DNA of 64,000 nt. It comes from a virus. Its lineage: Duplodnaviria > Heunggongvirae > Uroviricota > Caudoviricetes. The stretch's first letter is position 1. Each line of letters starts with the position of its first letter. The DNA is taken from IMG/VR virus record IMGVR_UViG_2579778660_000001. The stretch is one strand, 5' to 3'. Below are positions 4,652 through 38,887 of the stretch, piece after piece. The notes below the pieces were generated by a model. That model saw nothing but the letters and a program-made list of their open reading frames with translations. It was not told the origin of the DNA and did no database searches. The translations under genes and the position numbers were made by a program.

Positions 4652-5124
4652 AAACTTATTACACATCTCTGAATTGTTACCCGTCTTCCTATCCAGAATT
4701 ATCCGGGAAGCTGTTAGCTCTATTAGCTAAAGCACCTACGGAATGGTTTAAGCCAGTCGTTATCAATCCACACTTCCTGGATTACGGATCTGTTCGCACT
4801 CGTAACGAACTCAAAAACCTACTGGCGCATGGATTCATTCGACACCGTGCCGCGAAAGGCTATCAGTTAGCGATTGCGCCAGAAGAGGCTGTGCGGCTAT
4901 TCGCATATCGTGACAGCCAGACAAAAGCTCGGGTAATAGCTCAAATACTTCATAACGGCAGCACCTATGCCCGCCAGTTTGGCGGCGACACGTCGCAGTT
5001 CTTGCGGGCGGTGCGATCGCTGGAGGAGCAAGGAGTTATTGAAAGTTCCTGTCTTCCTGTTCCTACCGTTCCACATATCAAACGTCGGGTTTACACCTTC
5101 ACGCAGAGAGCTAAAAAACAATGA
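4648..5124 (+). CDS. hypothetical protein (158 aa)
   Basis: GTG start after AGGGGG; 4-nt overlap with upstream gene. Confidence 0.55.
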   Translation: MKTYYTSLNCYPSSYPELSGKLLALLAKAPTEWFKPVVINPHFLDYGSVRTRNELKNLLAHGFIRHRAAKGYQLAIAPEEAVRLFAYRDSQTKARVIAQILHNGSTYARQFGGDTSQFLRAVRSLEEQGVIESSCLPVPTVPHIKRRVYTFTQRAKKQ

Positions 5125-5615
5125 TTTACGTAAAAGTGAAACGCCTACATCCGGCAGCAAAACTTCCAGCTTATGCCACCTCCGGATCGGCGGCGATGGA
5201 TTTTGAGGCTGTTGAAATAAAACCATGCGTCGATAGCAATGGTGCAATTTCCTCAAGCTGGTGGGTGTATACCGGACTGGCTATGGAGATCCCGCCCGGC
5301 TGGTGTCTGAAACTCTATCCGCGATCCGGATTGGGCTGCAAAAAACATACTCGCCTGGCTAACTGCGTAGGAATTATCGACTCCGATTATCGCGGCGAAA
5401 TCATGGCAAAACTGATTACTGATCCCGGCGGGGAAGGCGTTTGTCTCAAGCCTGGAATGGCTGTCATGCAAGGAATTTTTGAACGTGTTGAACAAGTCTC
5501 ACTAGTCGAGGTTGAGGAACTCAACGAAACGGAACGTGGTGCTGGTGGCTTTGGTAGCACATCGGAAGGCCACTTTGAAATTAAGCGTTCACCGCTTCAG
5601 TACGAAAAGTTATAA
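5121..5615 (+). CDS. dut: dUTP pyrophosphatase (dUTPase)
   Basis: Motifs YATSGSAAMD, PRSGLG, GIIDSDYRGE, RGAGGFGSTS; overlaps upstream stop (ATGA). Confidence 0.85.
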   Translation: MIYVKVKRLHPAAKLPAYATSGSAAMDFEAVEIKPCVDSNGAISSSWWVYTGLAMEIPPGWCLKLYPRSGLGCKKHTRLANCVGIIDSDYRGEIMAKLITDPGGEGVCLKPGMAVMQGIFERVEQVSLVEVEELNETERGAGGFGSTSEGHFEIKRSPLQYEKL

Positions 5616-5629
5616 GCAGAGAAAAGACT

Positions 5630-6331
5630 ATGAATAACATGGCAACGAAAGAGCTTTTTAAGTTCCTTCCCAAATACAAAGCTCACAAAAACGTTAGTGC
5701 ATCGAAAATCAAAAATGTTGTTATTTTCGGAGTAACTGATGCCCCACTTTGGGGCAGCATCGAACTCGTTGAACCAAAAGGGGCAACAGTTTGTGTTGAC
5801 GCAATGTTTTTACAAAAACACCGACCAAAAACTGGCGGGTATCTGATCGTTTATGAAAACGGTTATCTGTTCTATGCCCCGGAGAAACCATTTGAGGAAC
5901 GCTATGGCCTGGTTAACGACGTCTCCAAAAATGGAACCACGGTCATCATTACGGATGACAACGGCGAGATGATTAATCTTACCGGGAGCGTAACTATTTC
6001 TGCTGGTGGCATCACCACCCAGCAAGAAGAAATCGACCTTGAAGCAGCCGACTTTTCTGACGCGCTGATGTGGCTGAAGGATGGCAAGAAAGTTGCCCGG
6101 CGCGGGTGGAACGGCGAAAACCAATTCTGCTGGCTGGTTCCAGACAAACACGGCGCTTCAAGACTAACCCCTATAAAACATGCCATCAATGGAGAGCTTG
6201 AAATCAATTTCGACTCTCCTCTTGCTCCTTATGGTACGCATTTCGCTTTGAAAAATGCACAAGGTGTAGTTGTTCCGTGGGTGCCTTCTGTAGGCGACTT
6301 ACTGGCATGTGACTGGTTTGTAGTGGAGTGA
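5630..6331 (+). CDS. fusion protein: unknown N-terminal domain + C-terminal DUF2829 (Tad2-like) domain
   Basis: C-terminal FSDALMWLKDGKKVARRGWNG ... VVPWVPSVGDLLACDWFVVE matches DUF2829 hallmarks. Confidence 0.7.
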   Translation: MNNMATKELFKFLPKYKAHKNVSASKIKNVVIFGVTDAPLWGSIELVEPKGATVCVDAMFLQKHRPKTGGYLIVYENGYLFYAPEKPFEERYGLVNDVSKNGTTVIITDDNGEMINLTGSVTISAGGITTQQEEIDLEAADFSDALMWLKDGKKVARRGWNGENQFCWLVPDKHGASRLTPIKHAINGELEINFDSPLAPYGTHFALKNAQGVVVPWVPSVGDLLACDWFVVE

Positions 6332-30661: not shown

Positions 30662-31567
30662 ATGAGATCAGTCGCTTTCAAAAATATCTTCATCTATCGT
30701 CTTTCACGCGAAGTTAACTGGGATACCGCAGAAGTAAATGCAGCCCTTAGCAAGTTTGTGTTTACCCCATGCGGTTCTCAGGATATGGCTAAAGCTGGTT
30801 GGACCCCAATTCTTGGCGACAACCTCACCCATGAATACCAGGGTTTTCTTCTGATGCAGCATAAACGAGAGGAAAAAATCCTGCCTTCTCAAGTACTCAA
30901 AGAAGAGTTACAGAAAAAAATCCTGAAACTTGAAGAAGAGCAAGACAGAAAGCTGAAGAAGACCGAAAAAGATTCGCTGAAGGATGAAGTGCTTCACTCT
31001 CTTCTTCCTCGCGCTTTCACGAGAAAATCAGTCGCTAAAATCCTGATAGACCGAAGCAATCATCTGGTTTTTGTCGAGGCCAGCAGTGCTAAAAAAGCAG
31101 AGGATCAGCTGGCTTTGTTACGGAAATCGCTTGGCAGCTTGCCCGTTGTCCCCTTCTCTCCGAAAGACCCATTAGAACTGACCATCACTGGCTGGATTAA
31201 AGATGGCTTCCCGAACGGTTTCCGTGCTGGTGAGGAAGCGACTTTAAAAGCATTGCTTGATGATGGCGGCGCGGTCCGCTGCAAAAAAGTGGACCTGCTA
31301 TCCGACGAGATCATGAGTCATATAGAAGCTGGTAAGGTTGCAACCACAGTTGCGGTTAACTGGCAAGACCGTGCATTTTTCAGACTGAATGACGATATGA
31401 GTATCAAGGCTTTGTCGTTCAGCGACGAATTGTACGACCAAAACGACGATATTGATCGAGAGGATGTAGCGCAACGATTTGACGCTGACTTTATCCTGTT
31501 TACTGCTGAATTATCAGCCATGTTCACTTCGCTAGTGGAGGCCGTTGGTGGTGAAGCAGAACGTTAA
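30662..31567 (+). CDS. rdgC: RdgC-family recombination-associated protein (divergent from host copy)
   Basis: 301 aa; [66 protein letters not shown]. Confidence 0.75.
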
Positions 31568-33839
31568 CCTTAGATATGGTTCTGTTTGCAGTGGAATTGA
31601 AGCAGCGAGCATTGCCTGGGAACCGTTGGGTATGCGTCCGGCGTGGTTTGCTGAAATCGAGCCTTTTCCATCTGCCGTTCTTGCGCACCGCTGGCCCCAT
31701 GTCGCCAACCTTGGCGATATGACAAAACTTGCCAAAAAAGTCCTGGCTGGGGAAATCGAATCCCCTGATGTGCTCGTCGGGGGAACACCTTGTCAGGCAT
31801 TCAGTATCGCGGGATTACGTGGTGGGCTTGATGATGAGCGTGGCGCGCTAACTTTAAAGTATGTGGAGCTTGCAAATGCAATTGACGACAAACGGGCTGA
31901 GTCATTTCTCAAACCAGCCGTTATCGTCTGGGAAAATGTCCCAGGAGTCTTGTCATCGGCAGATAACGCCTTCGGATGTTTCCTTGCCGGATTGGCTGGA
32001 GAAGATGCGCCATTCGAACCAGGTGCTCGACCTGAATCACGAAAAAGTAACGCGTTCTGGCGGTGGGATGTCAAAACCAGTTGCCATGCTCCAAAGTGGC
32101 CGCAGTGTGGTTGTATTTATGGACCGCAGCGAAAAGTGGCCTGGAGAATCCTTGATGCCCAATACTTCGGAGTGGCACAACGACGCCGACGCGTGTTTGT
32201 TGTCGCAAGTGCTCGAACAGACCTCGATCCCGCAACGATACTTTTTGAGTTCGAAGGCGTGCGCCGGAATATTGCGCCGAGCCGAAAAAAGAAGGAAATC
32301 GCTTCCGCCATTATTGCAAATGGCGCTGCAATCAGTGGCGAAAGTCTAAATCCATGCCTACACGCTGACATGCCCCCCGGTATGAAATCGACGAAAGCCG
32401 TAAACGCTTTCAGGATGGCGGCATTTGGGGAATATATTGACGATGAAACCGCATCGACAGTAAAGGCAAGAGACTTTAAAGATGCCACTGACCTTGCCGT
32501 TTTTAGCAGCACAGGAGCAGGTTTTTGGTCAGAGGGGCATGGTACATTGCGGGCGCGTGAGCAAGAAAGCCATGAGCATCTTGTTACATTAGCTTTTCCT
32601 GAGCATATGAGCGGTACACAACATGCTGCAACTAAGAATACTTCACCATCTCTAATGGCTCAAAATCCAACAGCCGTTTGCTATGAAGCAAGAAACGCAA
32701 AAGTAGCTGTTCGCCGTCTTACCCCTGTCGAATGTGAAAGGCTGCAAGGTTTTCCTGATGGGCATACGTTGATCCCTACGGAAAAGCGTAAAACAATTTC
32801 CTCAGATGAACTGGCATACCTTCGCAATCACTATCCAGATTTAAGCGAAGAAGAGGCCGCGATGCTCGCTGCTGACGGGCCGCGTTACAAAGCGATTGGC
32901 AACAGCATGGCAGTTCCTGTTATGCAATGGATTGGGTGTTGCATTCTTGCGACTGTGGAAGCTAAACAGCCAAAAACAATAAATACCATTACCTACACAA
33001 GAATACTCCGGACTCCGGATGAATATGAGCGTCCGATCTTCAAATGGGTAGGAGGTAAATTCTCAGAGTTACCTACAGTGCTTGAGCATCTACCACACGG
33101 CAAGCGGTTAATAGAACCATTCGTTGGTGGCGGTTCCGTATTTACGAATGCAGGATTTCGCCACAACCTGCTTAATGATATTAACGGTGACCTGATTAAC
33201 TTCTATCAGACATTGCAGCGAGAAGGACATTCGCTCGTCACGCTGTCATATAGTTTTTTCCAAAATTACAACAACGCTGACGCTTACCTCGAAGTGCGTG
33301 AGGCATTTAACAGAGGAAAGTATGACCAGCTACATCATGCTGCCGCCTTTTTGTACCTTAATCGGCACTGTTTTAATGGCGTAACGCGGTACAACCAAAA
33401 TGGCGAGTTCAACGTGGGGTATGGCAAATACAAAGCGCCCTACTTCCCACATGCAGAGATGGAGGCATTTTTGGCTGATGACGTACTCAAAAACACGTCC
33501 TTTGTATCAGGTGACTTTGCTGGCGTCATCGAGGCGGCTGGTGAAGGCGATGTGATTTTTTGCGATCCGCCGTATGAACCGCTGCCGGATACAGAAGGGT
33601 TTACCAGTTATTCAGGAAATAGCTTCCGTTTCGACGAACAGAAACGGCTGGTATCTCTATTGGTGGAAGCCCACCAGCGCGGCGCTAAGGTAGTGATTAC
33701 AAATAGTGGTGCGCCAAACATCCGTGAACTATATGAAGGAAACGGGTTTAAAGTACATCATATGGCAGCCAGACGGTCGGTTTCCTGCAAGGCGTCAACA
33801 CGTGTAGTTGCTAACGATATAATTGCAATAATGAAGTAA
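31548..33839 (+). CDS. dmt: bifunctional DNA methyltransferase (N-terminal C5-cytosine MTase + C-terminal Dam-like N6-adenine MTase), P1 Dmt-like
   Basis: [12 protein letters not shown] and ENV in N-half; Dam-like [14 protein letters not shown] and DPPY in C-half; GTG start after GGAGG. Confidence 0.85.
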
Positions 33840-33842
33840 AAA

Positions 33843-33872
33843 ACGCCGCAGTAGCGGCGTTTACTTTTTTAT
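33843..33872. terminator. bidirectional intrinsic terminator (dmt / glnS)
   Basis: ACGCCGCagtaGCGGCGT flanked by A-run and T-run. Confidence 0.6.
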
Positions 33873-33887
33873 GTGGCGAAATACCTA

Positions 33888-35549
33888 TTAACCTAACTTC
33901 GCCCAGGTATCACGCAGCCCAACGGTGCGGTTAAATACCGGTTTTTCCGCCGTAGAATGGCGGCTGTCGAGGCAGAAATAACCTTCACGCTCAAACTGGA
34001 ATGCTTTACCAGCTACCGCTTCTTTCAGCGACGGTTCAGCAAAGCCCTGTTTGATCACCAGCGATTCCGGGTTAATCACCGACAGAAAATCATCCGCAGC
34101 ACCTGGGTTCGGTACACTGAACAGACGGTCGTACAGGCGAATTTCAACCGGCAGCGCATGGGCCGCGCTTACCCAGTGGATAACGCCTTTCACTTTACGA
34201 CCATCTGCCGGATCTTTGCTTAAAGTATCGGCATCGTAGGTACAGAAGATGGTGGTGATATTGCCTTCGGCATCTTTCTCCACGCGTTCAGCCTTAATGA
34301 CGTAAGCATTACGCAGACGCACTTCTTTACCCAGCACCAGACGTTTGTACTGCTTGTTAGCTTCTTCGCGGAAATCGGCGCGGTCGATCCAAATCTCACC
34401 GCTAAACGGCACCTGACGGCTACCCATTTCCGGTTTGTTCGGATGGTTCGGCATGGTGACCATTTCGCCTTCGCCCTGGTAGTTTTCGATAACCAGTTTC
34501 ACCGGATCGATAACCGCCATTGCGCGCGGCGCATTTTCGTTGAGATCTTCACGGATGCAGGATTCCAGCGACGCCATCTCAATGGTGTTGTCCTGCTTGG
34601 TCACGCCGATGCGTTTGCAGAACTCACGAATAGAAGCCGCAGTGTAACCACGACGACGCAGACCGGAAATGGTCGGCATACGCGGGTCATCCCAGCCTTC
34701 AACGTGCTTGTCGGTCACCAGCAGGTTCAGCTTACGCTTGGACATCACAGTGTATTCCAGATTCAGGCGCGAGAATTCGTACTGGCGCGGGTGAACAGGA
34801 ATGGTGATGTTGTCCAGCACCCAGTCGTACAGGCGACGGTTGTCCTGGAACTCAAGCGTACACAGAGAGTGCGTAATACCTTCCAGCGCATCGCTGATGC
34901 AGTGGGTGAAGTCGTACATCGGGTAGATGCACCACTTGTTGCCAGTCTGGTGGTGTTCAGCAAACTTAATGCGGTACAGCACCGGATCGCGCATCACGAT
35001 AAACGGCGACGCCATGTCGATTTTCGCACGCAGGCAGGCTTTACCTTCTTCAAAACCACCGGCACGCATTTTTTCGAACAGCGCCAGGTTCTCTTCAACG
35101 CTGCGATCGCGGTACGGGCTGTTTTTACCCGGCTGCGTCAGGGTGCCGCGGTATTCGCGGATCTGTTCCGGCGTCAGTTCGTCAACATACGCCAGGCCTT
35201 TGTTGATCAGTTCAACAGCATAGGCGTGGAGCTGATCAAAATAATCGGAGGAGTAACGGACGTTACCAGACCAGTGAAAACCTAACCATTCAACGTCGTT
35301 TTTAATCGACTCGACGTACTCGATATCTTCTTTTACCGGGTTAGTGTCGTCGAAACGCAGGTTGCACTGGCCTTTATAGTCCTGGGCGATCCCGAAGTTC
35401 AGGCAGATAGATTTCGCATGACCAATATGCAGATAGCCATTCGGTTCCGGCGGGAAACGGGTATGTACTGTGGTGTGCTTACCACTTGCCAGATCTTCAT
35501 CGATGATCTGACGAATAAAGTTAGTCGGGCGGGCTTCTGCCTCACTCAT
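33888..35549 (-). CDS. glnS: glutaminyl-tRNA synthetase, host-type
   Basis: 553 aa; essentially E. coli GlnS as recalled ([20 protein letters not shown]..., HIGH, VMSKR); higher GC than flanks. Confidence 0.9.
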
Positions 35550-35708
35550 TGTGGATTCCTCAAAGCGTAAAAAACGTATAACAGCGTATGATCTTATAAG
35601 CCGAATAGGCTGACAACCACTAGTTGATTAGAAATTGCTTTCTATCGTTATTTCAATAATGAGCTTTTTCATGAAGCCCACTTTTGCGCATAAGTAAATT
35701 AATGACAA

Positions 35709-35784
35709 ATGGTACACAATTGGAACCAAAAAGGATGTAAAGGTGCACCAAATTAGTGGTGTATTGGTGCATCTTTGGTTCAAG
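35709..35784. repeat. cluster of short GGTGCACC/TGGAACCA-type repeats downstream of parG
   Basis: TGGTACAC, TTGGAACCA, GGTGCACCA, TGGTGTATTGGTGCATC, TGGTTCAAG within 76 bp. Confidence 0.4.
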
Positions 35785-35817
35785 ATTTTTTAAGTTCTAA
35801 AACCACCCTGAAAGACT

Positions 35818-36105
35818 TTATTTTGCTTCCTCAGACTCCGCTAACATGAGGATAGCATGGCGGATCATATTCAATTTGCTGCGATTATGCTTTTTACTTA
35901 ACGCATCAAGTACCTGGTACTCGTATTCATTGAAACCAACACGAATAGATTTAAAATCACGTGGAGCGTCCTTATCGAGCACTTTGTTGTCTTCTGGTTG
36001 CTCACCCGGCACCAAATCAGCCTTACTTGCAAAATCCTCAATTCGGCGTTCAAGATCGGGGTCTTTTACTTCGGGGGCTTTTACCGATTTACGAGGTTTA
36101 ATCAC
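35818..36105 (-). CDS. ParG-like partition DNA-binding protein
   Basis: 95 aa; directly downstream of and overlapping parA; C-terminal ribbon-helix-helix assumed from size and position. Confidence 0.55.
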   Translation of the reverse strand: MIKPRKSVKAPEVKDPDLERRIEDFASKADLVPGEQPEDNKVLDKDAPRDFKSIRVGFNEYEYQVLDALSKKHNRSKLNMIRHAILMLAESEEAK

Positions 36106-36739
36106 TTAATAACTCCTTAACCAACATCTGGATTTCACCTTTAGCTTTCCCGTTGTCCATCTCAACAACGCCCTTCCCTTCAGCCATGCAATCGCGGTAA
36201 ACCTTACGATCACGAATGATGGTTTTCAGCAACTTCAGTTGCGGATATTCAGCCAGGTACTCTTTGGCCTCATTGGTTTCATTCACAACCGGATTGGATG
36301 GGGCCATTGTTAAGACTGCGAACGCCTTAATGCTAGGATTAGGCATCAGGTCCAAAGCCTCTTCAAACACTTCAACAAAGTGTGCCAGCGTGTCTAAATC
36401 TGGTTGAGATGGTCTGAATGGGACCAACACAATATCTGCAGCGGTTATGCCTGTACGCATCTCTTTGCTATCGCGCCCGGCTGTATCAACAACTACAAAT
36501 TCATAACGCTTATCCAGATCGAGAAGTGTTTCTCGAATATTACCAAACTTCTGGACACAATGAATTACAGGAGAAACCTCTGCCGTGTTACGGTCAGCGG
36601 CCCAGCGGGCAGCTGTTCCTTGCTTGTCTGCATCTAGTAACACTACATCCTTATTTTCGCGGGCAAGCTCCGCACAGATGTTTACGCTTGTGGTTGATTT
36701 TCCACAGCCACCTTTTTGGCTGACTACCAATATAATCAT
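36098..36739 (-). CDS. parA: ParA/ParF-type small partition ATPase
   Basis: 213 aa; deviant Walker A KGGCGKS. Confidence 0.85.
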   Translation of the reverse strand: MIILVVSQKGGCGKSTTSVNICAELARENKDVVLLDADKQGTAARWAADRNTAEVSPVIHCVQKFGNIRETLLDLDKRYEFVVVDTAGRDSKEMRTGITAADIVLVPFRPSQPDLDTLAHFVEVFEEALDLMPNPSIKAFAVLTMAPSNPVVNETNEAKEYLAEYPQLKLLKTIIRDRKVYRDCMAEGKGVVEMDNGKAKGEIQMLVKELLSD

Positions 36740-36760
36740 ATCCGTTCCTCGGTGTTATTT

Positions 36761-36976
36761 TGGTATCAAACTGGTTCCAAACAGAAGCCTTATTGATGCA
36801 GTTTTGGCTCTATAGTGGAGTCATTATGCTTTGCAAAAGTATAACACTAATCATTCTAAATTTGCCCTCTGTTGCATCCTGTTTAACACGAAATCAGCCC
36901 TAAATTGGAACCAGATACAAAACTGCACCATAACAGCACCTAACCGGTGCCAGATTAACACCAATTAGGCACCATT
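36761..36976. repeat. repeated (G/A)CACCA / GGAACCA motifs upstream of parA (putative centromere/operator)
   Basis: TGGTTCCA, TTGGAACCAG, CTGCACCAT, CGGTGCCAG, ACACCAATT, GGCACCATT. Confidence 0.4.
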
Positions 36977-37026
36977 AAGGCATAAAAAAGGCTGCAATTT
37001 GCAGCCTTAAACCAGCACATCTTCTG

Positions 37027-37371
37027 TCAATCAGGTAGAGAGTCAGCCAGATTGCGCGCCGACGCGCTTTTGGCAACAACTTGCTCCTTCACTGGCTCAA
37101 TGGAGGCAGGGCGCTCCTCAACCGCAGCTGGTAGTTCCAGGAAGGATGCCAGCATTTTTCGGATCAGCTCCGGATTATTATCTTCGGTCAGCAGGGAAGC
37201 CAGTAATCCTGGAAGCCTGCTATCGACTTCTCCCAGCGCAAGCCCTGCCAACAATGCGGTTCTTGCCATATCGCTATGTTTTTTTATCTTCTCGCTCGCC
37301 GCCTTTTCATTGGCATAAGCCTCTGGGCGAAGATAAATCATCACTTTCTTACGTTCCTGAGACATGGACAT
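37027..37371 (-). CDS. parR: ParR-like partition adaptor
   Basis: 114 aa, immediately downstream of parM. Confidence 0.55.
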   Translation of the reverse strand: MSMSQERKKVMIYLRPEAYANEKAASEKIKKHSDMARTALLAGLALGEVDSRLPGLLASLLTEDNNPELIRKMLASFLELPAAVEERPASIEPVKEQVVAKSASARNLADSLPD

Positions 37372-37378
37372 TACCTCG

Positions 37379-38359
37379 TTAACCGATTGCTTTCAGGCCA
37401 TGAACAAGAGCAAGTTGCGGGTCATCCGCCACGAAGAAACGGTCATCACGAATATTAACTTGCTCGCGAATTGCATCTGCCACCAGCGGTGCGCCACCAC
37501 CGATCACCATGACATGCGTATATCCTTTAAAGTCGCCAATCACATCAAGAACGCGGGTACGCAGACGGTCAATGCTTGCGGCAATGGCCTTTTTCACATC
37601 ACCAATCGCTGATGGGTCATTGATATTGTCGTTCAGATAATCTTCATCGTGGCGGTTAATAATGAGCTGATCGACATTGTAATTTGACGTTTCGGTATTG
37701 GCCCTTGCAAGTGCTTGCCTTACTTCCCTGGTGACCAGTGATACACCAAGATTCGAATCGCCAAAAACACGGGAAACTGCCGTCATTTGCCCGGCGACCA
37801 TTGAAACATCAAGGGTAGTTCCACCCAAATCGACGATAAGAACAGAATGGGCAGGGTTCAGATTGTCGCACAGGCCAATTCCTGCCGGAATAGACTCCGG
37901 TCGTACCGTAACTTTCTTAATCGTGAACACATTGCCTTTATTCAGCGTGACGGGGCGCATAAGACTGGCTTTCTTGCGCTCGATGTTATCGAGATTGTAT
38001 TGCGCGTCGTCGTCGTAAAACTCCGCCAGAGGCAGCGTGACCACAATTTCTACTTCCTGCGGCTCAATGCCACTTGTCAGCAGGGCATGGTGAACAGCCA
38101 GGACGTTAAGCGGGCTGTATTGCCATTCCACGTTATTCGTCGGCAGAACATCTGGCGAGATCAAATCATACGAATACTTTTCGTCGTCAATGACATAGTT
38201 AAACGGCTTGCCCGCACCAAATGTTGCTGACCATCCGCGCTTAAAGCTGTTAGGGCTGATGTGAGTGCGAGTTTCCCCGTCGTGCTCCCACAGCATTTTG
38301 ATATTGGTTGAACCATCATCGATAAAAATGCGCATCTTCTTGCTCCACTTCTGAGACAC
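37379..38359 (-). CDS. parM: ParM/StbA actin-like partition ATPase
   Basis: MRIFIDDGSTNIKMLWEHDGETRTHISPNSFKRGW... close to R1 ParM/StbA N-terminus as recalled. Confidence 0.8.
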   Translation of the reverse strand: MSQKWSKKMRIFIDDGSTNIKMLWEHDGETRTHISPNSFKRGWSATFGAGKPFNYVIDDEKYSYDLISPDVLPTNNVEWQYSPLNVLAVHHALLTSGIEPQEVEIVVTLPLAEFYDDDAQYNLDNIERKKASLMRPVTLNKGNVFTIKKVTVRPESIPAGIGLCDNLNPAHSVLIVDLGGTTLDVSMVAGQMTAVSRVFGDSNLGVSLVTREVRQALARANTETSNYNVDQLIINRHDEDYLNDNINDPSAIGDVKKAIAASIDRLRTRVLDVIGDFKGYTHVMVIGGGAPLVADAIREQVNIRDDRFFVADDPQLALVHGLKAIG

Positions 38360-38602: not shown

Positions 38603-38887
38603 ATGAGCGCAATAGCCACCAGCGACACCCTTTGTTCTGGTCACGGAGGATTTCCGCCGCGACTGGTAGCTGAAACTGTTCCCTGGTTCACCGTTAACGG
38701 TAAGCCAATTGTTGTAGATGGTGCCATGTTTCCCAGTCACACTGACGGTAACAGTGCACATCCAGGGGCAGCTGTATCGACGCGAGTATGGTTTTCGATA
38801 GGTGGAAAGGGAGTTGTCTGTGTAGGCGATCCGCTTTCTTGTGGTTCTGTTATCGCCAACGGCGAGGATATTTTTCAGGTTGCATAA
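38603..38887 (+). CDS. PAAR-like spike-tip protein
   Basis: 94 aa; Gly/Cys pattern (CSGHGG, VNGKPIVVDGAM, GGKGVVCVGDPLSCG). Confidence 0.55.
   Translation: MSAIATSDTLCSGHGGFPPRLVAETVPWFTVNGKPIVVDGAMFPSHTDGNSAHPGAAVSTRVWFSIGGKGVVCVGDPLSCGSVIANGEDIFQVA

Follow-up and report, generated by a model that had tools for sequence, protein, structure and literature searches.

Why should a phage-plasmid carry a complete copy of a housekeeping gene that its host already has? The question is raised by glnS, which codes for a glutaminyl-tRNA synthetase, in the 64,000-nucleotide stretch of DNA analysed here (the window; IMG/VR record IMGVR_UViG_2579778660_000001). An earlier note on this DNA had placed the gene between dmt and the partition genes, and we observed exactly this order, with dmt on the left and a 95-aa ORF, a ParA-type ATPase and StbB/ParM on the right. 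The locus comprises the following features.

31545-33839, plus strand: dmt, encoding a 764-aa fused C5-cytosine and D12 N6-adenine DNA methyltransferase (PF00145 and PF02086)
33835-33872, both strands: intrinsic terminator with its stem at 33841-33862, in the gap separating the stops of the two convergent genes, dmt and glnS (terminator scan)
33841-35637, minus strand: block of chromosomal origin, made up of terminator, 25-nt spacer, CDS, 5' UTR, promoter and ~20 nt upstream of the -35
33888-35549, minus strand: glnS CDS, ATG to stop, 553 aa, class I glutaminyl-tRNA synthetase (ORF list)
35556-35561, minus strand: Shine-Dalgarno GAGGAA, 6 nt upstream of the ATG and the same as the chromosomal one (alignments)
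35588-35616, minus strand: glnS promoter, with -35 TTGTCA at 35616-35611, a 17-nt spacer and -10 GATCAT at 35593-35588 (promoter scan)
35638-35708, no strand: spacer, AT-rich and of uncertain origin, that separates the captured promoter from the backbone, whose homology to the empty-site plasmid resumes at ~35709 (empty-site alignment)
35818-36739, minus strand: 95-aa ORF (homologue of D6 orf61) and 213-aa ParA-type ATPase (Pfam, D6 annotation)

Two partition modules lie side by side, the ParA-type ATPase first and StbB/ParM next (Pfam, D6 annotation), and dmt, annotated in phage D6 as 'similar to P1 gene dmt', is convergent with glnS. We conclude that the gene is very probably a functional second glnS: a chromosomal unit that was captured once, has been kept intact, exchanges sequence with the host copy and is equipped with its own signals.

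We first consider the identity of the product. The claim that this is a full-length gene for what is essentially E. coli GlnS was borne out. The protein scored 1067.6 bits against TIGR00440, the NCBIfam glnS equivalog (cut-off 425.8), whereas in a comparison of GlnRS with GluRS/GluQRS models the GluRS models gave 78-384 bits, each below its own cut-off. Pfam domains PF00749 (residues 28-337), PF03950 (340-439) and PF20974 (456-528), each scoring well beyond its cut-off, make up a complete architecture of catalytic Rossmann domain and two anticodon-binding beta-barrel domains, and the class I motifs HIGH (41-44) and VMSKR (268-272, KMSKS-type; Met1 numbering) are in place. When aligned with crystallised E. 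coli GlnRS (PDB 1o0b), 550 of 553 residues are identical. Three substitutions, I112V, D510E and V552L, account for the rest, and the protein also lacks the terminal Glu554; the C-terminus reads ...WAKLG* here and ...WAKVGE* in E. coli. Residue 510 differs among genera, and the Citrobacter chromosomal allele also has valine at 112. At the codon level, 49 synonymous and 2 internal amino-acid changes separate the gene from that of K-12. The product is thus a complete GlnRS, expected from its sequence to charge host tRNA-Gln exactly like the host enzyme, and we infer from its near-identity to the characterised E. coli enzyme that it glutaminylates tRNA-Gln. The GC content of the CDS (0.528; GC3 0.61) is higher than that of the 10 kb on each side (0.46-0.475) and of the whole window (0.472), in line with what had been noticed before; the GC3 of dmt is 0.44.

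The gene is accompanied by a full set of expression signals. Both promoter hexamers are the same as those of the E. coli chromosomal glnS promoter in alignments, and a Dam site, GATC, lies inside the -10 at 35590-35593. Dam represses glnS, according to a statement in PMC12369378 that cites Plumbridge & Soll 1987. Downstream, the terminator stem has arms AAACGCCGC / GCGGCGTTT that form 9 bp, 6 of them GC pairs, around a 4-nt loop, with an A-run on one side and a T-run on the other, and there are T-runs on both strands. Since these runs flank the stem, a single predicted hairpin can terminate both dmt and glnS. Its RNA fold reached -18.9 kcal/mol on the glnS strand (z -4.3; 0 of 200 shuffles as stable) and -17.5 kcal/mol on the dmt strand (z -2.6). 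The gene had been described as bracketed by a bidirectional terminator, and this needs to be amended: the hairpin is two-way, but there is only one, at the dmt side, and on the other side of glnS we found the promoter and the AT-rich spacer instead of a terminator. The same stem is present in K-12 ~210 nt further downstream of glnS, past a REP-like sequence, and an identical stem follows the glnS stop by ~20-30 nt in Salmonella and Citrobacter chromosomes. By these alignments the terminator is glnS's own, brought in with the gene.

To define the limits of the insert, the flanks were compared with the host locus. In megablast searches of more than 5,400 E. coli chromosomes, the match spans only window positions 33898/33892 to 35637/35617, at 95.6-97.0% nucleotide identity. 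Chromosomal homology ends at ~33892 and ~35637 and both flanks are element-specific; the right limit is unambiguous at 35617 in alignments, and weak similarity may reach ~35650. An empty site exists in pEC361_3, a plasmid of the same replicon cluster, in which the order is dam, its own terminator, 135 nt and the orf61 homologue, with the partition genes directly after dam and no glnS between. Comparison with this plasmid gave an insertion size of ~1.85 kb. The insert is therefore best described as a whole glnS transcription unit of chromosomal origin, from promoter to terminator, and the suggestion of host-gene capture is upheld by the confined homology, the element DNA on both flanks and the empty-site relative. 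We found no IS elements or long repeats around the insertion. A direct repeat of 12/13 nt is present, in which 35650-35662 copies the last 13 nt of dmt (33822-33834); its position at both insert edges is suggestive, no more, of a capture scar.

We next asked whether the locus is real and where it resides. The glnS of D6-like elements is in the literature already, as a hallmark of phage D6 and its lineage. In the D6 annotation, orf62 is a glutamine--tRNA ligase, and glnS has been described as a cargo gene ('moron') in D6-like genomes (PLoS One 2019, PMC6799933, which cites Gilcrease & Casjens 2018 as the D6 genome paper). The window belongs to this D6 group of P1-related phage-plasmids and is an extrachromosomal replicon of ~90 kb. 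Each third of it matched best to 88-97-kb non-mobilizable plasmids that encode terminase, capsid, tail and RepB genes. Over positions 33600-36100, identity is 97.8% with D6 and reaches 99.9% with plasmid records, and the surroundings are collinear with D6 (tail/baseplate, rdgC/hrdC, dmt, glnS, orf61, ParA-like, StbB/ParM, PAAR, capsid). The view of glnS as unusual cargo applies to P1 itself and to phages generally, among which only 13 of 50,697 records contained any GlnRS homologue, but not to the D6 lineage, in which it is the norm (PMC6799933).

An assembly chimera, or a window that is chromosomal, had also been considered. The gene is a two-copy repeat in carriers and short-read contigs break within it (nine draft contigs end there), so chimeric joins are conceivable in drafts. 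However, identical junctions recur in cultured phage D6, in 98 plasmids of PLSDB, in 70 complete E. coli genomes and in 17 contigs of IMG/VR. The exact 3' and 5' junction strings were found in D6, six plasmids and the 17 IMG/VR contigs and at 0 of 86 chromosomal loci, and the 5' string occurs in a diverged E. fergusonii plasmid as well. In a search of 5,426 complete E. coli genomes, the par-side flank was on a plasmid in 94 of 94 cases and on no chromosome, and elsewhere, too, the window matches phage-plasmids of ~90 kb. These data refute both ideas, to which we attach practically no probability. About 100 independent complete plasmids of ~90 kb carry glnS, nearly all copies being annotated as intact; ~1.7% of complete E. 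coli genomes have a D6-like element, and such elements occur in Salmonella hosts too. Retention of glnS amounts to ~86-90% of the plasmids that have this par locus. Because ~13 of the 94 E. coli plasmids that share this par locus are without the glnS-side spacer, and at least one (pEC361_3) is without glnS, the gene is not indispensable to elements of this kind. A chromosomal glnS match was present in 5425 of the 5426 genomes, with 81 plasmid places in addition. The host thus keeps its own gene, the element gene is a second copy and a lysogen has two.

To characterize the history of the captured gene, mosaicism and dN/dS were analysed on exported alignments. As judged from the sequences, glnS was evidently captured once, by the ancestor of the D6 group. 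Nei-Gojobori dN/dS was 0.01-0.03 in 20 of 20 comparisons, and the diverged pTB423 and E. fergusonii lineages, at dS ~0.24 from the window, have values of 0.01-0.02 with intact frames. Relative to the sampled E. coli alleles there are 13 fixed plasmid-specific sites, 12 of which lie in nt 87-369; in this 5' block, 11 of the differences are synonymous and 1 is conservative. A further 29 polymorphisms are common to plasmids and chromosomes, and the D6 gene is window-like in its 5' part and tolC-like in its 3' part (max chi-square 34; 0 of 2000 permutations). The pattern marks the element gene as an evident mosaic from repeated exchange with the host chromosomal glnS. The low dN/dS could in part be borrowed from the chromosomal copy by gene conversion and is for that reason no proof of selection on the plasmid copy. 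Copies in Salmonella hosts are intact and E. coli-like, and the one Salmonella chromosomal glnS sampled differs from E. coli-type alleles at ~250 of 1653 positions. The stop-to-terminator stretch is REP-less here, as in Salmonella and Citrobacter, whereas E. coli and E. ruysiae have a REP-like sequence. The donor comparison covered E. coli and, as the one Escherichia species among the matches listed in the contig scan, E. ruysiae; within it, E. ruysiae was rejected as donor (77 nucleotide differences versus 47-63 for E. coli, a KVGE* end and a REP-like sequence after the stop).

What, then, might the second copy do? We propose that the ancestor of the D6 group took up the glnS transcription unit and placed it between dmt and the partition module. 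Because the insert brings its own sigma-70 promoter, RBS and terminator, transcription of glnS should not depend on phage regulation, and we infer that the gene is expressed and active. A lysogen would hold two glnS copies, and more during lytic replication. Rising genome copy number might leave the glnS promoter unmethylated and derepressed, from which the phage could benefit; alternatively, the lysogen may benefit from the added GlnRS. An extra or insured GlnRS supply is our leading guess at the benefit, held tentatively and at somewhat less than an even chance, and it may overlap with plasmid retention. We know of no specific reason why GlnRS, over other synthetases, should be limiting.

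Retention could itself be the main role, if the gene acted by takeover of an essential function as cysS(pBT1) does: the plasmid copy would be the main source of GlnRS, the chromosomal copy would be down-regulated while the plasmid is there, and disturbance of the plasmid-borne gene, or plasmid loss, would be costly. A maintenance role of this kind, like that of cysS of pBT1, was proposed for glnS by the authors of PMC6799933, and in the precedent cells need cysS(pBT1) to grow normally, and repression of the chromosomal cysS is seen only when pBT1 is present (PMC6333337). The frequent retention of glnS alongside this par locus, the intact plasmid gene in addition to a chromosomal copy and an independent glnS near cysS on a Citrobacter cronae plasmid of the pBT1 family all fit. 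Against this, essentially every carrier has a full-length chromosomal glnS, yet in D23580 the same was the case for cysS; two partition systems are already present on the element, as are two toxin-antitoxin systems (PMC6799933); and glnS-less relatives persist. In addition, a pBT1-cured strain grew like wild type (PMC6333337), which means that the precedent is not classical post-segregational killing. We regard retention by takeover as rather unlikely. The same doubt applies to the broader idea that housekeeping synthetase genes are recurrent 'host-takeover' stabilisers of plasmids and phage-plasmids and that D6-type glnS works like cysS(pBT1). If so, the element gene would be the working copy of the cell with the chromosomal gene turned down, its Dam-sensitive promoter might give the element dosage control, and glnS beside cysS on the pBT1-family plasmid would reflect the same selective logic.

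A neutral hitch-hiker, of low cost and kept intact mainly by gene conversion from the selected chromosomal copy, would account for the clear mosaicism with chromosomal alleles, the nearly host-identical protein and the relatives without glnS. It does not sit well with the plasmid-specific 5' block, which was never overwritten and is under equal constraint, or with the low dN/dS of the pTB423 and E. fergusonii lineages despite their divergence. The Salmonella-hosted copies are likewise intact and E. coli-like despite the distance of the host gene, and promoter, RBS and terminator have all been kept; we consider a neutral hitch-hiker distinctly unlikely. Even less probable is counter-defence, in which extra GlnRS offsets an attack on tRNA-Gln, GlnRS or translation, or the enzyme is an inhibitor-insensitive variant. 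Synthetase genes are rare in phages, as counted above, glnS adjoins a methyltransferase gene of anti-restriction type, and some contact-dependent inhibition toxins cleave tRNA-Gln. A resistant variant should diverge, however, and an inhibitor- or toxin-resistant GlnRS was rejected: the protein is the host enzyme except for two conservative internal substitutions at naturally varying positions (I112V, D510E) and the C-terminal tail. This near-identity leaves the earlier suggestion of counter-defence without support. We detected no tRNA gene in the window, tRNA-Gln included, literature searches found no GlnRS-directed defence system, and none is known to us. Finally, glnS might be a portable homology arm for integration of the element at chromosomal glnS by homologous recombination, given that 1.7 kb of sequence is 96-97% identical to the chromosome and that exchange between copies has been demonstrated. 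There is no integrated copy in the 5,426 complete E. coli genomes (par flank, 0 chromosomal places), and an arm would not require low dN/dS at the protein level, which makes this highly improbable.

In conclusion, a functional captured second glnS is the reading that we favour. Its importance is modest and threefold. The D6-like elements of E. coli and Salmonella keep a second glnS. The gene offers a clean natural case of a whole transcription unit that moved from chromosome to phage-plasmid and then went on recombining with the host copy. In practice, short-read assemblies break at this two-copy repeat, which can also mislead typing or variant calling based on glnS. If retention were true after all, synthetase capture would be a general maintenance strategy, beyond the single case of pBT1.

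Among known systems, the closest are D6 orf62 and the glnS of D6-like plasmid prophages such as pYU39_89 and pYU07-18_89; this is the same gene, its position is the same, and junctions, promoter and terminator are shared as well. Window and D6 glnS show allelic differences only (46 nt and 4 aa, in a mosaic distribution), and dmt is one 764-aa ORF in the window but two shorter annotated CDS in D6. E. coli chromosomal glnS (GlnRS structures 1o0b, 1gtr, 1qtq) is 99.5% identical in protein to the window copy and shares the promoter hexamers with GATC, the RBS and the terminator stem; the element gene differs in its phage-plasmid location, the missing REP-like spacer, the KLG* rather than KVGE* end and the 13 fixed nucleotides. 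Plasmid-borne resistant synthetases, such as mupA/ileS2 (mupirocin) and the agrocin-84 immunity LeuRS, are also second synthetase genes on mobile elements. The mupA/ileS2-type enzymes, however, are strongly diverged from the housekeeping enzyme, this divergence being the basis of resistance, whereas the element GlnRS is in essence that of the host. Aminoacyl-tRNA synthetases are likewise encoded by huge phages and giant viruses, and two ~640-kb uncultured phages have GlnRS homologues; these are ~50% identical and lie within large translation-gene sets, in contrast to the lone, recent, near-identical host gene of a 90-kb temperate phage-plasmid.

A further comparison is with cysS of pBT1, which resembles element glnS in being a full-length gene for a housekeeping synthetase that a plasmid carries although the cell has its chromosomal counterpart as well. 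In Salmonella Typhimurium ST313, cysS(pBT1) is experimentally the functional copy (Canals et al. 2019, PMC6333337), and literature searches found no experimental work on plasmid-borne glnS. The pBT1 gene is 79% identical in nucleotides and 89% in amino acids to the host gene, whereas D6-type glnS is 96-97% and 99.5% identical to that of E. coli. The carrier is a conjugative plasmid for cysS and a phage-plasmid for D6-type glnS. The two genes come together on the conjugative pBT1-family plasmid of C. cronae, where glnS lies two genes from a cysS that is 95-96% identical to those of the pBT1-like plasmids CP022036 and CP022136. This glnS differs from a Citrobacter chromosomal gene at 167 of 1653 nt and represents an independent capture, reported here for the first time.

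We found that the sole long open reading frame in 33840-35817 encodes a glutaminyl-tRNA synthetase (GlnRS). The gene, its signals and its neighbours are as follows.

31545-33839, convergent with glnS: dmt, a fused C5 and N6 methyltransferase of 764 aa (left flank; Pfam)
33841-33862: terminator hairpin between the convergent dmt and glnS stops, -18.9 kcal/mol, z -4.3
33888-35549, minus strand: glnS, 553 aa, with the RBS GAGGAA
35616-35588, minus strand: glnS promoter, TTGTCA-17-GATCAT, with the same hexamers as the chromosomal promoter
35818-36105: 95-aa ORF, homologue of phage D6 orf61 and partner of the ParA-type ATPase (right flank; Pfam)
36098-36739: ParA-type partition ATPase (right flank; Pfam)
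37027-37371: StbB, of an actin-type partition system with ParM (Pfam)
37379-38359: ParM, of the same actin-type system (Pfam)

With the NCBIfam glnS equivalog TIGR00440 (cut-off 425.8), the protein scored 1067.6 bits. It contains all three GlnRS Pfam domains and shares 550 of 553 aligned residues with the crystallised E. coli enzyme (PDB 1o0b); every GluRS and GluQRS model scored it under its own cut-off. The gene differs from the K-12-type chromosomal gene at 55 nt, with 49 synonymous codon changes. I112V and D510E are the only internal amino acid changes, and the C-terminus reads KLG* instead of the chromosomal KVGE*. GC content is 0.528 for glnS compared to 0.472 for the window, and GC3 is 0.61 compared to 0.44 for the adjoining dmt. 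These data bear out the earlier note, which described a full-length, E. coli-like and GC-richer glnS between dmt and the partition genes.

Similarity to the E. coli chromosome (95.6-97.0%) is confined to about 33892-35637 and starts, at the 5′ end, slightly upstream of the glnS promoter. The D6-group plasmid pEC361_3, from the same replicon cluster, has an empty site: dam, a terminator of its own, 135 nt and the orf61 homologue come in that order, with no glnS (NZ_AP027414.1; 5950-7290 of fetched locus L085). Relative to this plasmid, the window holds about 1.85 kb of extra DNA, from 33840 to about 35708. The restricted homology, the empty-site relative and the chromosome-type promoter and terminator strongly support host-gene capture, one of the origins previously proposed. 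The gene had also been described as bracketed by a bidirectional terminator; there is one hairpin rather than one on both sides, and it does lie between the dmt and glnS stops. Its stem, AAACGCCGC/GCGGCGTTT, with a T-run, is common to the K-12 glnS terminator, which in K-12 lies about 210 nt further downstream, past REP-like sequence; on the chromosomes of Salmonella and Citrobacter it follows the stop after about 20-30 nt. Since the stem is shared with chromosomal glnS terminators, we infer that the hairpin is glnS's own and that a whole, REP-less transcription unit was captured. The remaining about 70 nt (35638-35708) are of uncertain origin. The 3′-terminal 13 nt of dmt (33822-33834) recur with 12/13 matches at 35650-35662, a direct repeat at both edges of the insert that is suggestive only and may be a capture scar (target duplication or microhomology) or chance. 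A 14-codon mini-ORF directly upstream of the promoter (MKKLIIEITIESNF, 35628-35672, minus strand), present in the main D6 group and absent from an E. fergusonii plasmid, is probably not meaningful.

Several features of the surroundings were also observed. Two unlike partition modules, of ParA and StbB/ParM actin type, adjoin in 35818-38359. Just downstream of the orf61/ParA operon, an inverted repeat at 35739-35776 (AAAGGTGCACCAA / TTGGTGCATCTTT; 13-nt arms, 12-nt spacer) might serve as a terminator or as a centromere-like site bound by protein, and the stretch around it is partly kept in the empty-site plasmid. The window dmt is one ORF with C5-cytosine and D12 N6-adenine methyltransferase domains, like P1 Dmt, whereas in D6 the region is annotated as two shorter CDS, orf64 and orf63, of ~1.58 kb (4662-6240 of the D6 locus L001); the dmt regions thus differ by ~0.7 kb. 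A small ORF at 38603-38887, the counterpart of D6 orf57 (annotated as similar to P1 upfC), scored 26.4 bits for a PAAR motif, slightly below the Pfam cut-off of 27. Window 1-25000 matches 1,814 plasmid records, far beyond the D6 group, and must hold some widely distributed mobile DNA; inside the matched span of the top record lies a group II intron (ltrA).

To determine recurrence, we searched with a 2.5-kb query spanning both junctions (33600-36100). It is 97.8% identical in Escherichia phage D6, is covered to at least 80% by 98 PLSDB plasmids from E. coli, Salmonella and Shigella (best 99.9%), and is present in 70 complete E. coli genomes. Exact strings of 20-27 nt across each junction, 3′ and 5′, are present in D6, six sampled plasmids and 17 IMG/VR viral contigs and absent from all 86 fetched chromosomal loci. 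This recurrence rules out an assembly chimera, which the earlier note had considered. Nor is the window chromosomal: the partition-side flank, which has no chromosomal homologue, was found in 94 of 5,426 complete E. coli genomes, every time on a plasmid. For the other two thirds of the window, the matches are plasmids of ~90 kb that are non-mobilizable and carry terminase, capsid, tail and RepB genes. The idea that glnS is an integration arm at the chromosomal locus was rejected; the partition-flank search revealed no integrated copy of the element in the 5,426 genomes. A chromosomal glnS match is present in 5425/5426 of these genomes, with 81 plasmid places besides; hosts keep their own gene, so the element adds a second copy. 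Nine IMG/VR draft contigs (L106, L113-L120) begin or stop at varied positions within glnS while keeping the element-specific junction. These breaks look repeat-induced, implying a chromosomal copy in the same genomes, and make the two-copy glnS a practical warning for short-read assemblies.

The shared junctions point to one capture event. Synonymous divergence (dS) is 0.13-0.17 from E. coli alleles, 0.23 from E. ruysiae and 1.06 from Salmonella, and the donor was Escherichia-like; neither the KLG* ending nor the REP-less arrangement was found among the sampled Escherichia chromosomes. In the diverged, D6-like plasmid of E. fergusonii (71-81 differences relative to the main group) and in pTB423 (70-83), glnS occupies the same site and shares the upstream junction or the terminator, which marks the capture as old. 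In the former (NZ_CP099330.1; 4220-6090 of locus L083), the 554-aa product ends in KVEG*, and 12 fewer nt separate the stop from the terminator; the 3′ end of the gene has thus undergone remodelling at least twice within the lineage. dN/dS was 0.01-0.03 in all 20 comparisons, including those between plasmid lineages. Fixed plasmid-versus-chromosome differences cluster within glnS nt 87-369 (12 of 13), and 29 polymorphisms are common to plasmid and chromosomal alleles. The D6 gene has a window-like 5′ part and a 3′ haplotype identical to tolC/10671-type chromosomes (maximum chi-square 34; 0/2000 permutations). Such mosaic alleles show that plasmid and host copies exchange sequence. Plasmids in Salmonella hosts retain the E. 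coli-type allele, and glnS travels with the element instead of being re-acquired from each host.

As far as sequence analysis allows, these observations establish the captured glnS as a functional second GlnRS gene carried as cargo. Promoter, RBS, full-length ORF and terminator captured together would meet all needs of autonomous expression. With a protein that is in essence the host's own, charging of host tRNA-Gln is expected. No tRNA genes lie in the window. The most likely benefit would be an extra or insured GlnRS supply. Chromosomal glnS is repressed by methylation of a GATC that the captured -10 hexamer retains; the chromosomal gene is expressed about two-fold more strongly in a dam mutant (PMC12369378, reproducing Plumbridge & Soll 1987). 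Speculatively, glnS expression would rise on under-methylated element DNA in rapid replication.

Alternatively, the gene might serve plasmid retention, like cysS of the Salmonella plasmid pBT1, a role already put forward for plasmid glnS in PMC6799933. Some circumstantial support comes from a pBT1-family Citrobacter plasmid that has independently captured glnS beside its own cysS. On this conjugative C. cronae plasmid (NZ_CP060445.1; 5985-9809 of locus L084), glnS lies two genes from cysS, differs from a Citrobacter chromosome at 167/1653 nt and has its own -35 and terminator; cysS is 95-96% identical to that of pBT1-family plasmids, and a HigB toxin gene is near. A counter-measure to defence, as the earlier note had suggested, or a resistant GlnRS variant is disfavoured by the 99.5% identity to the host protein and by two conservative internal substitutions at naturally variable positions. 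It is possible that glnS is a hitch-hiker kept intact through gene conversion, but the constrained plasmid-specific block, the intact genes of diverged plasmid lineages and the retained expression signals agree poorly with this reading.

The window gene is the D6-lineage glnS. In D6 it is annotated as orf62, 'glutaminyl-tRNA synthetase, similar to E. coli GlnS', and PMC6799933 discusses it as a moron of D6-like genomes. Its presence in such elements is therefore already known. The description as unusual cargo nevertheless holds among phages at large: 13 of 50,697 phage records have any GlnRS homologue, and only D6 has the E. coli type. Unrelated, putatively phage-encoded homologues (48-57% identity) were seen in two ~640-kb uncultured phages and an Acinetobacter phage record (LR745206.1, LR756502.1, CAKLQF020000030.1), and mid-contig in four IMG/VR contigs (L109-L112; one of 159 kb). 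With pEC361_3 lacking glnS and the glnS-side spacer missing from about 13 of the 94 E. coli plasmids with the same partition locus, it is not strictly true that all D6-like genomes carry the gene. To what is known of the D6 lineage, our analysis adds the insert as a whole, REP-less transcription unit, an empty-site relative, exchange with host alleles and a plasmid carrying both glnS and cysS.
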